From NCBI GenBank assembly GCA_963729605.1, contig CAVSNY010000005.1:87318-151317 (forward strand): 64,000 nt of DNA, in the 5' to 3' direction. The position numbers were made by a program, and so were the translations under genes. The notes below the pieces were generated by a model that saw only the letters and a list, made by a program, of their open reading frames with translations, was not told the origin of the DNA and did not search any database. Each line of letters opens with the position of its first letter. Position 1 is the first letter of the stretch. Shown piece by piece: positions 8,590 through 9,790 of the stretch. This DNA is from an uncultured Gammaproteobacteria bacterium. GTDB taxonomy: Bacteria > Pseudomonadota > Gammaproteobacteria > DRLM01.

Positions 8590-9790
8590 GCTGCGGAACC
8601 CCTCTGTTCATAGCCATCGTAGTCATGCCGTCAGCATCTCCTTCGCCAGTAAGGACCGAAGAAATCTACCACAATACAAGCAGATAAAATACCCGGCACG
8701 GTGATTTTTCCGATATGGCGAGTGTTGCATGGCTTCTTCCATCTGCGGGAGAAGGACATGAATGGCGCATCGGAAAATAATGCGGGCTGAATAAACGATC
8801 AGCGGAATGGACCCCCGCCGGTTCAACAAAGAGCAAACCACCCCGGCCCTGCGGGCCACCCCTCCTTGTAACAAGGAGGGGAGAACATTACAAACAACGA
8901 CCACGCACGGGGTTAGTTCGCGGTGCAGATCAAACTCCGATACCCCCCTCCCCTCCGAAGAGAGAAATATTTCGACGTCCCCGCGCGACGCTCGCACGAT
9001 CAAGCTCGACAACTCCCCTCCTCTCCGAGGAGGGGTGGCCCGCAGGGCCGGGGTGGTGCGCATCAAAATCATCCGCCCTCGAATCACTCAATACCGCCAT
9101 TGCCACTGCACATCCACGTGATTTTCCGATATGGCGGGTGAGAGAAATATTTCGACGTCCCCGCGCGACGCCTGCACGATCAAACTCCGATGACTCCCCT
9201 CCTCTCCGAGGAGGGGTGGCCCGCAGGGCCGGGGTGGTGCGCATCAAAAATCATTCGCCCTCGAATCATTCAATACCGCCATTGCTACTGCACATCCAGG
9301 TGATTTTTCCGATAGGGCAGGTGTTACATGGCCTCTTCATCTGCGGGAAAAGAGCATGAATGGCGCATCGGAAAATAATGCGGGCTGAATTAACGATCAG
9401 CGGAATGGACCCTCGCCGGTTCAACAAAGAGCAAACCACCCCGGCCCTGCGGGCCACCCCTCCTTGTAACAAGGAGGGGAGAACATTACAAACGGCGATC
9501 ACGCACGGGAGTTAATTCGCGGCGCGGATCAACTCCGATAACTCCCTGAGAATCGAAACCGGCCGCCGCGTTGTAATAGCGTTAATTCCGCGGTGCAGAT
9601 CAAACTCCGACAACTCCCCTCCGAAGAGAGGAATATTTCGACGTCACCGTGCGGCACTTGCGCGATCAAACTCCGATAACTCCCCTCCTCCCCGAGGAGG
9701 GGTGGCCCGTAGGGCCGGGGTGGTGCGCATCAAAATCATTCGCCCTCGAATCATTCAATACCGCCATTGCCACTGCACATCCAGCTGTCC
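8590..9790. repeat. palindrome-rich tandem repeat array (~600-bp unit x ~2 with nested sub-repeats) between the OPX gene and wzi
   Basis: Long direct repeats: 8695-8800 vs 9295-9400; 9017-9140 vs 9190-9330 vs 9683-9790; 8833-8890 vs 9438-9495. The cores are CCCCTCCTCTCCGAGGAGGGGTGGCCCGCAGGGCCGGGGTGGTGCGC and CACCCCGGCCCTGCGGGCCACCCCTCCTTGTAACAAGGAGGGG, and both are hairpin-forming. Confidence 0.85.

Follow-up and report, generated by a model that had tools for sequence, protein, structure and literature searches.

Repetitive extragenic palindromes (REPs) are short, GC-rich palindromic units that lie between genes, also inside operons, as singlets, as inverted doublets (REP doublets forming hairpins, REPINs) and as mosaic clusters with two spacer classes (bacterial interspersed mosaic elements, BIMEs). 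They co-evolve with their REP-associated tyrosine transposase (RAYT), an enzyme of the Y1 HUH type whose small gene is bracketed by its own repeats, with orphan repeats spread through the genome; they are lineage-specific and are known to affect mRNA stability. To our knowledge, REP-like repeats without a RAYT have long remained without explanation. [quoted passage not shown] This locus is an array of hairpin-forming repeats in the capsule gene cluster of an uncultured gammaproteobacterium, contained in a 64-kb window (the whole stretch of 64,000 nucleotides that was analysed). The array fills the spacer between wzi and the gene of a polysaccharide exporter, both of which had been named in the initial annotation of this DNA and were confirmed by Pfam:

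9755..11224, minus strand: wzi, capsule assembly outer-membrane protein (PF14052, E 1.9e-84); the 490-aa form fits relatives
6094..8589, minus strand: Wza-like polysaccharide exporter (Pfam Poly_export and SLBB repeats)

The reading that we favour, with a probability of about 0.7, is that the array is the record of an insertion followed by tandem duplication, not a device, and that the module from which it is built belongs to a repeat family present in many phyla and linked to DUF559 nuclease genes.

The wzi-exporter spacer contains three head-to-tail units

The spacer (8590-9754, 1165 bp) is described along the minus strand, on which both wzi and the exporter gene are encoded. The initial description was of a tandem array, rich in palindromes, that takes in the wzi 3' end, with units of about 600 bp repeated about twice. 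The array itself was confirmed by self-comparison, Tandem Repeats Finder (TRF) and a repeat search. Strong direct diagonals were observed at offsets 598, 667, 181 and 485/486 when the region was compared with itself using 12-mers, TRF reported a period of 181 with 2.0 copies (92%), and the repeat search gave direct families of 110, 172 and 60 nt together with twelve inverted pairs, four of them 30 nt long and 100% complementary. The tandem repetition is real, whereas the size and number of the units had to be revised. Alignment of the units with relatives and a landmark search, which were used to set the boundaries, resolve the region into three head-to-tail units of 485, 182 (internally deleted) and 417 nt, each of which opens with the last 29 nt of wzi and carries a non-coding element (of 291 nt, truncated, and of 222 nt, respectively):

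9299..9783, minus strand: unit U3, 485 nt; true wzi 3' end (9783-9755), 27 nt (9754-9728), element E3 and a 138-nt right flank (9436-9299)
9117..9298, minus strand: unit U2, 182 nt; wzi relic with in-frame TAG (9298-9270), 28 nt, element E2 and a 23-nt right-flank remnant (9140-9118)
8700..9116, minus strand: unit U1, 417 nt; wzi relic (9116-9088), 27 nt, element E1 and a 138-nt right flank (8838-8700)
9437..9727, minus strand: element E3, 291 nt, non-coding, with inverted modules at its ends, exactly at a site that is empty in a relative (L001, see below)
9141..9241, minus strand: element E2, of which only the 5' 101 nt are left, the remainder being deleted
8839..9060, minus strand: element E1, 222 nt, the same element as E3 minus an internal sub-repeat of ~69 nt

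The right flank of U3 terminates in AATCACC, and U1 runs on into a conserved 110-nt exporter leader (8699-8590). The units are joined at AATCACC/TGGATG and AATCAC/GTGGATG, and both junctions fit one original (G)TG microhomology between ...ATCACCGTG/CC and wzi ...CAGCTG/GATG. The parts shared by the units are 88-96% identical (4-12% diverged), which indicates that they are old, rather than the products of switching. When U1 was compared with U3, no difference was found at 73 positions of module stem and frame, against 29 differences at 342 flank positions (Fisher p = 0.003); this reflects constraint or homogenisation of the modules.

Head-to-tail units, junctions with microhomology of 1-3 nt, a later third copy and an internal deletion are the features of microhomology-mediated tandem duplication with unequal crossing-over. 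The case is not an unusual one, other than that the segment copied takes 29 nt from a gene and includes hairpin elements, which may have triggered the rearrangements. The initial annotation had set the array apart from CRISPR (short palindromic repeats that are clustered and regularly interspaced), and rightly so: the modules are present in both orientations, the spacings are irregular (181-598 nt) and the 'spacers' are themselves repeated.

The element was inserted 3' of wzi at a site that is empty in a close relative

Relatives were reached via cluster mates of the exporter and via Wzi homologues (L-numbers are labels of compared loci or contigs from other assemblies). In L001, whose wzi DNA is 95.5% identical, the spacer measures 279 bp and reads ...GATTTTTGATG directly followed by GTTTGCTCTTTG..., that is, the exact insertion site in its empty state, with TTTGATG adjoining GTTTGC. 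The insertion point lies 27 nt past the wzi stop, between these two motifs, and is filled in the window and in two other assemblies, both interrupted inside a module. L124 (wzi DNA 96.5% identical) has the wzi-element junction of the window and its contig ends inside the module; the contig of L002 begins inside the other module, 274 bp before the exporter gene, with the same junction as the window. In L125 (Wzi 82% identical) the spacer has 151 bp and is free of the element. Because the spacers of L001 and L125 are short and lack the element, this comparison of loci shows a short, element-free spacer as the ancestral state, with the insertion in the window lineage and the tandem copies later.

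The element starts with CGCACCACCCCGGCCC(T/G)... and ends with ...GGGCCGGGGTG, and hence it is bounded by two inverted modules. Folded as RNA, E3 forms a long terminal stem (-157 kcal/mol, z = -7.95). Like a MITE, the element is short (222-291 nt; E1 222, E3 291) and non-coding, has terminal inverted repeats of ~45 nt, and is cleanly present in some close relatives and absent from another (filled/empty polymorphism) while the site is otherwise identical. It differs from a MITE in that no clear target-site duplication is seen (a 2-nt ambiguity only, at one site pair), a parent IS with a known transposase did not turn up, the wzi array is the only place where the element's interior was seen, and its termini are independent, widely distributed modules.

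In L126, a 67%-identical relative, the contig breaks off past wzi (6900-7027) in another tandem repeat (GGTCAGTGGTCGGGGTGACAGG, 22-nt period). The spacer 3' of wzi may be repeat-prone in several lineages.

The C-terminus of Wzi is native

The wzi 3' 29-mer is present as the real gene end (9755-9783), as an exact copy (9088-9116) and as a copy with one mismatch, which creates a TAG (9270-9298). The two extra copies had been reported initially with coordinates 1-2 nt off, and it had been left undecided whether the repeat captured the C-terminus of wzi or supplied it. Homologues of Wzi at 63-95% identity (490-513 aa, with the same C-terminus as the protein of the window) terminate in QLDVQWQWRY, QFDVQWRWRY, QMDAQWEWRF and similar sequences. 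An aromatic-terminal strand is typical of outer-membrane barrels. Since some of these homologues come from repeat-free loci and end in the same motif, the repeat is not the source of the C-terminus, and capture is the alternative that stands; the alignments show a native wzi end, the duplication having begun 29 nt inside the gene. The two extra pieces are dead fragments, and at 29 nt, one of them with a stop, they are unable to replace the real wzi end. The wzi 3' end also contains GGCGGTAT, one base away from what we take to be the ops sequence, a similarity that was dismissed as a probable by-product of the conserved W-R-Y codons.

The array is built from a two-hairpin module

The modules at the ends of the element are ~50 nt long and have the structure CCCCTCC-loop-GGAGGGG-TG-hairpin-GGGGTGGT; the strand of a module is the one that reads CCCCTCC...GGGGTGGT. 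Two hairpin cores had been distinguished in the initial annotation. They do recur, but they are not distinct: one module in opposite orientations accounts for both, and the sole difference is in the first hairpin's loop. The 30-nt core AGGAGGGGTGGCCCGCAGGGCCGGGGTGGT has 7 copies in the window versus 0 in 100 shuffles, and five of these copies are in the array, at 8837-8866(-), 9028-9057(+), 9209-9238(+), 9435-9464(-) and 9695-9724(+, 1 mismatch). Folding of the cores was checked as well: a module modelled as single-stranded DNA adopts two hairpins side by side, with -15 to -17 kcal/mol for the individual copies.

A covariance model (R1) was built from 100 diverse modules and run unfiltered on the 64 kb. 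Nine full modules and a degenerate one were detected, all of them intergenic and within 8831-12926, and no module was found by R1 in the remaining 60 kb of the window. Five are located in the wzi array:

9673..9730, plus strand: two-hairpin module (R1 61.0 bits, E 3e-18)
9429..9488, minus strand: two-hairpin module (R1 54.1 bits)
9187..9244, plus strand: two-hairpin module (R1 60.3 bits)
9006..9063, plus strand: two-hairpin module (R1 61.4 bits; DNA fold -15.7 kcal/mol)
8831..8890, minus strand: two-hairpin module (R1 54.1 bits; DNA fold -16.3 kcal/mol, z = -3.8)

The other copies form a second array, detected by R1 and by the core search:

12122..12926, no strand assigned: second array, between pyrF (13141-13899) and a comEA-like gene (11613-11897)
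12869-12926, minus strand: second-array module
12742-12801, plus strand: second-array module
12460-12517, minus strand: second-array module
12333-12392, plus strand: second-array module
12122-12185, minus strand: degenerate copy

This second array, in the region 12122-13060, consists of 409-nt units, 98% identical, each with a tail-to-tail pair of modules 75 nt apart. In its plus-strand modules hairpin 2 is GCCCTC-GCA-GAGGGC, replacing GGCCC-GCA-GGGCC, so that the stem is compensated. The modules alternate in orientation in both arrays of the window, and the interior of the element differs between them. At the second-array site the relative L172 has two modules only, in a region shorter by ~550 nt.

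The module belongs to a family present in many phyla

The pattern AGGAGGGGTG-N10-16-GGGGTGGT was searched in one genome per species, and phyla were taken from the record titles. At least 120 loci with the module pattern were obtained; among the matches listed are Acidobacteriota, Bacteroidota, Chlamydiota, Patescibacteria, Verrucomicrobiota, Cloacimonadota and Bacillota, and Pseudomonadota is represented among them by Burkholderiales and Gammaproteobacteria, including Competibacteraceae. In a metagenome scan the exact 30-mer was present in 49 loci, on contigs of 41-70% GC with unrelated flanks, and in a viral scan the general pattern was present in 47 viral or proviral contigs. The upstream arm CCCCTCC (with up to 1 mismatch) was found in 243 of 265 unique modules, a loop of 7 nt being the commonest. 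As this arm lies outside the search pattern, its presence indicates that the matches are real instances of one structure. Hairpin 2 covaries freely: it occurs in 143 distinct sequences, with 525 stem base pairs versus 286 +/- 15 in chimeric controls, and one of its pairs is distributed in RNAalifold as GC 37, CG 33, UA 5 and AU 2. Most of the loops are GNA triloops, a kind characteristic of stable DNA hairpins. Neighbouring modules are arranged tail-to-tail in 49 cases (typically 16-30 nt apart), head-to-head in 39 and in tandem in 27.

The module family therefore occurs in many phyla as singlets, inverted pairs and arrays with a REP/BIME-like layout, and the REP/BIME-like organisation proposed initially for the array is borne out by inverted pairs and arrays in intergenic DNA. 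Cores absent elsewhere and an array identical in all relatives would be the marks of a simple ancient duplication, and the reverse was found: the module recurs and the length of the array varies. As in REPs, the units are GC-rich, palindromic and extragenic, fall into the same three arrangements with two spacer classes, and are located inside operons. Different from REPs, the module has two hairpins and a conserved GGGGTG...GGGGTGGT frame kept across phyla, and its copies in the window are locally clustered. GTGG stands directly 5' of hairpin 2 in the window copies; the frame of the family as a whole is GGGGTG (partly imposed by the pattern), and many copies have GTGC.

The second hairpin can be missing (L257, L258, L012 and L001). 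The copy of L001 (10283-10328; GGAGGGG-C-GGGGTGGT) is placed in another intergenic spacer of the capsule locus, which indicates that the second hairpin is dispensable for retention of the module.

No Rfam 15 family matched the 64 kb at the gathering threshold, and the matches at E <= 10 were at chance level (miRNA and lncRNA models). The consensus module gave no BLAST match in PLSDB plasmids, possibly owing to the low-complexity filter. No clear bias of module orientation with respect to neighbouring open reading frames (ORFs) was seen with crude ORF calling, and mismatches in hairpin 2 show a weak strand asymmetry (G.T 22 vs A.C 10). The motif was not found in the literature by sequence strings or by REP and MITE terms, and it is absent from Nunvar 2010 and from Di Nocera 2013, the GTAG/CGTC survey (PMC3733652).

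Three related metagenome contigs (L130, L140, L148) carry a tail-to-tail module doublet between rplT and pheS, in which GGAGG of the first hairpin of the second module is situated 9-17 nt before the pheS start codon (ATG). The module can thus occupy an essential operon, where it may provide or mask a ribosome-binding site. In five Burkholderiales-like contigs (L128, L129, L136, L163, L165) a module doublet is nested in a larger element with outer inverted repeats CCGTAACAAAATGAAG ... CTTCATTTTGTTACG, which suggests a composite MITE-like family. RfbB genes are common close to modules in other phyla (7 loci).

Modules bracket DUF559 nuclease genes

The ORFs enclosed by pairs of modules were identified at six loci of different lineages as a DUF559 gene (PF04480, E 1e-27 to 1e-35), always preceded by a module and followed by an inverted one, the GGGGTGGT ends being turned toward the gene. 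On viral contigs 2 of 23 DUF559 loci have canonical modules on both sides, and 4 more are bracketed by variant modules with G/C-tract hairpins. An example of the variant is CCTCCCCC-TCT-GGGGGAGG-TG-GCCC-GGA-GGGC-CGGAGGGGGC, and the form CCTCCCCC.../...GGAGGGGGC is present in L231 and L243. Five top DUF559 homologues of the database, some of them with the label Ignavibacterium, Calditrichaeota or Opitutaceae, were inspected. Each has an inverted module that lies at the stop codon or no more than ~30 nt from it, and in three of the five a module ends 0-12 nt before the start. L246 has a module at 1138-1200, the DUF559 gene at 1201-1575 and a module at 1576-1643. In total, 13 independent loci have a DUF559 gene bracketed by the module. 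Directly 3' of the DUF559 gene of L259 (Opitutaceae) there is a tandem array (1591-2106) of the form inverted module, 123 nt, module, 48 nt, with a period of 282, and its layout matches that of the wzi array.

The family is very large, with at least 7987 matches at E <= 1e-10 among 8000 scored candidates, and many members are on contigs of less than 2 kb, as expected of repeat-flanked genes. The solved structure closest to the DUF559 protein is 3hrl (E 4e-28), an uncharacterised protein. In PMC3424549, DUF559 is grouped with Vsr, DUF2726 and a group I intron homing endonuclease. The DUF559 protein thus shares the nuclease superfamily of Vsr-like homing endonucleases such as I-Bth0305I, as well as the small selfish-looking genes, the many copies and the short contigs. 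It differs from homing endonuclease genes in that the DUF559 loci have no intron or intein context, and flanking hairpin modules with orphan arrays are not known for those genes. The REP/RAYT system is similar too in that its repeats bracket their own small gene of nuclease type, with orphan repeats spread through the genome, but the bracketed gene here encodes a PD-(D/E)xK (Vsr-like) nuclease instead of a Y1 HUH transposase.

In a screen for programmed inversions (PMC9881135), the genes associated with inverted repeats show an enrichment of 'DUF559 domain-containing protein' with an odds ratio of 14.3. No repeat family around DUF559 genes was met with in the searched literature that mentions DUF559, judged by titles, abstract openings and selected DUF559 passages, and the link between DUF559 and the module appears to be undescribed there.

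DUF559 frames can run into the downstream module, with tails such as ...TPPFQGGE (L081 5164-6477, L252 1201-1590, L238 197-489), and that of L081 continues into a SpoU methylase gene. Such read-through may account for the DUF559-SPOUT enzyme 'fusions' in databases that PMC1829167 notes.

A role of DUF559 as an anti-phage defence gene was considered and rejected, the PADLOC matches being marginal only. The ~170 module loci were also subjected to guilt-by-association by all-against-all clustering of ORFs: the largest clusters, which were ABC ATPases, histidine kinases, RfbB and rplT/pheS, were rejected as ordinary neighbours, and no recurrent small transposase-like family was found among the ORFs of these loci.

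Genes surrounding the array

The longest ORF of wzi spans 9755-11503 (minus strand). An exact match to the exporter protein exists in NCBI/ENA records. Upstream of wzi the following feature was found:

11540..11561, minus strand: intrinsic-terminator-like hairpin with T-run, 3' of the comEA-like gene

This hairpin indicates that wzi is the start of a separate transcription unit. A scan of the spacer revealed no terminator-like site between wzi and the exporter gene, which makes it plausible that the array is the 5' leader of the exporter. In the promoter scan of the array a single weak promoter-like site was obtained (8753-8781, plus strand, 9/12), and it is directed away from the exporter. 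The small ORFs across the array gave no Pfam match and are disrupted by the insertion; as candidate genes they were treated as spurious.

Downstream of a conserved wzi-exporter-wzz head, the glycosyltransferase, flippase and sugar-nucleotide genes differ among the window (1-5326), L001 and L002, which places the modules at the edge of a variable polysaccharide cassette. A nucleotidyltransferase gene (Polbeta/MNT-type) is located at 5601-6113 of the window, between the exporter and a wzz-like gene, and in L001 (5476-6320) the nucleotidyltransferase gene has a HepT-like (HEPN) partner, and the two form a pair of the toxin-antitoxin type within the capsule locus. Elsewhere in the window, where conserved housekeeping gene order is seen (cmk ... 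lapA-lapB-pyrF), the long plus-strand ORFs 15625-17394, 23827-25995 and 53907-55376 gave no Pfam match and are probably antisense shadows of opposite-strand genes (e.g. rpsA).

Discussion

The observations comprise an insertion, a tandem triplication with internal deletion, a BIME-like layout and the bracketing of DUF559 genes by modules. The history begins with a non-coding element of 222-291 nt, which was inserted into the short ancestral wzi-exporter spacer. The segment from 29 nt inside wzi to AATCACC was next duplicated head to tail, with the junction AATCAC(C)(G)TGGATG and its microhomology of 1-3 nt; a second duplication followed, and the interior of the middle copy was lost. At the level of mechanism, the hairpins may extrude in single-stranded or supercoiled DNA, and cutting by a nuclease or stalling of replication at them could promote insertion, microhomology-mediated duplication and unequal crossing-over. 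Modules may be the cis-acting ends of DUF559-encoding elements, with orphan pairs and arrays as their non-autonomous products, a scheme that would parallel REPs and REPINs with their RAYT, or MITEs with an IS. DUF559 would accordingly act on modules, either as a mobilising enzyme or as a homing gene that targets pairs of modules. As the window has no DUF559 gene, its copies would be orphan or non-autonomous members only. For the host, the main consequence would be that the wzi-exporter intercistronic region has grown to 1165 nt and contains ten strong stem-loops; should wzi and the exporter gene be co-transcribed, these might stabilise the upstream wzi message and damp read-through, as REPs and BIMEs do.

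Several results weigh against this reading. No DUF559 gene or remnant was found in the 64-kb window, and what points to mobilisation by DUF559 is the position of the gene, which could also be a homing-type insert that targets pre-existing pairs of modules. The GGGGTGGT ends point inward in DUF559 units and outward in the element inserted 3' of wzi, so that the candidate parent and the inserted element have their modules in opposite relative orientation, and no unlinked locus was found to carry the interior of the element. The nine full copies and the degenerate one are confined to two neighbouring spacers, unlike the dispersed high-copy pattern of REPs. Some modules in the relatives L124 and L001 bear stem-breaking mutations, which indicates that selection on modules is not universal. 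Finally, a single filled/empty pair defines the ends of the element, and the TG (2 nt) at the junction is assignable to either side, so that a 2-bp duplication or a crossover is indistinguishable from none.

Other explanations were weighed against insertion followed by duplication. It is unlikely that the array is a classical BIME (REPIN) cluster mobilised by a single-copy RAYT elsewhere in the genome. A RAYT had been suggested as something to look for, but no Y1_Tnp gene is present in the 64 kb and no such family among the ~170 module loci, the gene that modules bracket at other loci being DUF559. The module does resemble a REP in its GC-rich, palindromic and extragenic nature, its alternating orientations, its two spacer classes and its GNA triloops, and the GTGG before hairpin 2 in the window copies is like the GT[AG]G head of the REPs in PMC2817692. 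Against this, ~30 nt of the module are kept across phyla, unlike the lineage-specific REPs, nothing in REPs corresponds to the first hairpin or to the 3' GGGGTGGT, and the motif is absent from the GTAG/CGTC survey. We also doubt that selection acts on the module as a structured RNA (for cis-regulation, as a hairpin controlling translation or as a protector of mRNA ends) and that the array is a duplicated leader. Filled and empty sites are the behaviour of inserted DNA, both orientations occur within one spacer and in tandem arrays without strong bias toward neighbouring ORFs, the G.T over A.C asymmetry is weak, and Rfam gave nothing at the gathering threshold. What speaks for an RNA is that hairpin 1 pairs the anti-Shine-Dalgarno-like CCCCUCCU with the Shine-Dalgarno (SD)-like AGGAGGGG, that an SD-like GGGGUGGU is placed 0-25 nt before the start codon in DUF559 units, and that the rplT-pheS pair of modules has its GGAGG close to the pheS ATG; moreover, hairpin 2 covaries and E3 folds strongly as RNA.

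The initial annotation had suggested phase or antigenic variation of the capsule locus. A programmed switch, by inversion or copy-number change between inverted modules, would find 30-nt, 100% identical inverted repeats flanking short segments, an array whose length varies among relatives at the head of a variable polysaccharide locus, and, from PMC9881135, DUF559 genes flagged among predicted inversion targets; yet no invertase, recombinase, transposase or RAYT is encoded in the 64 kb, the sole promoter-like site is weak and faces away from the exporter, the divergence of the units argues for age, and the dead wzi fragments are unable to replace the real gene end, which makes a switch highly improbable. 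More improbable still is an assembly artefact, that is, a collapsed or mis-joined repeat that was expanded: although short-read assemblies of relatives break exactly in modules, many unique substitutions and two large indels set the units apart, no two junctions are alike, and two independent assemblies share the wzi-element and element-exporter junctions. The initial description of the array was largely accurate, its functional speculation found no support, and the empty site, the history of insertion and duplication, the spread across phyla and the link to DUF559 had been missed.

Beyond the history of insertion and duplication, we would entertain, without favouring it, the bolder proposal that the module is the cis-acting end of an unrecognised mobile or selfish DNA present across phyla, whose autonomous form is a unit of ~0.5 kb encoding only the DUF559 nuclease and whose progeny includes the array. 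This would be a REP/RAYT-like system based on a different enzyme fold, and by analogy with Vsr, which reads a T:G mismatch, the DUF559 nuclease would possibly read a T.G-closed DNA hairpin.

The wzi array is real, but it is an ordinary product of insertion and tandem duplication in a REP/BIME-like hot spot, and the more interesting result is the conserved family of two-hairpin modules tied to DUF559 genes across phyla. For the capsule operon, the eight-fold growth of an intercistronic spacer has been traced and an exotic origin of the wzi C-terminus ruled out, and the module array explains why short-read assemblies of this lineage break at the wzi spacer. If DUF559 nucleases mobilise the module or home into it, a large family of small unexplained nuclease genes would acquire a role. 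If true, an enzyme and its substrate would be at hand for testing, and capsule clusters and other variable loci would have a source of their recombination hot spots.

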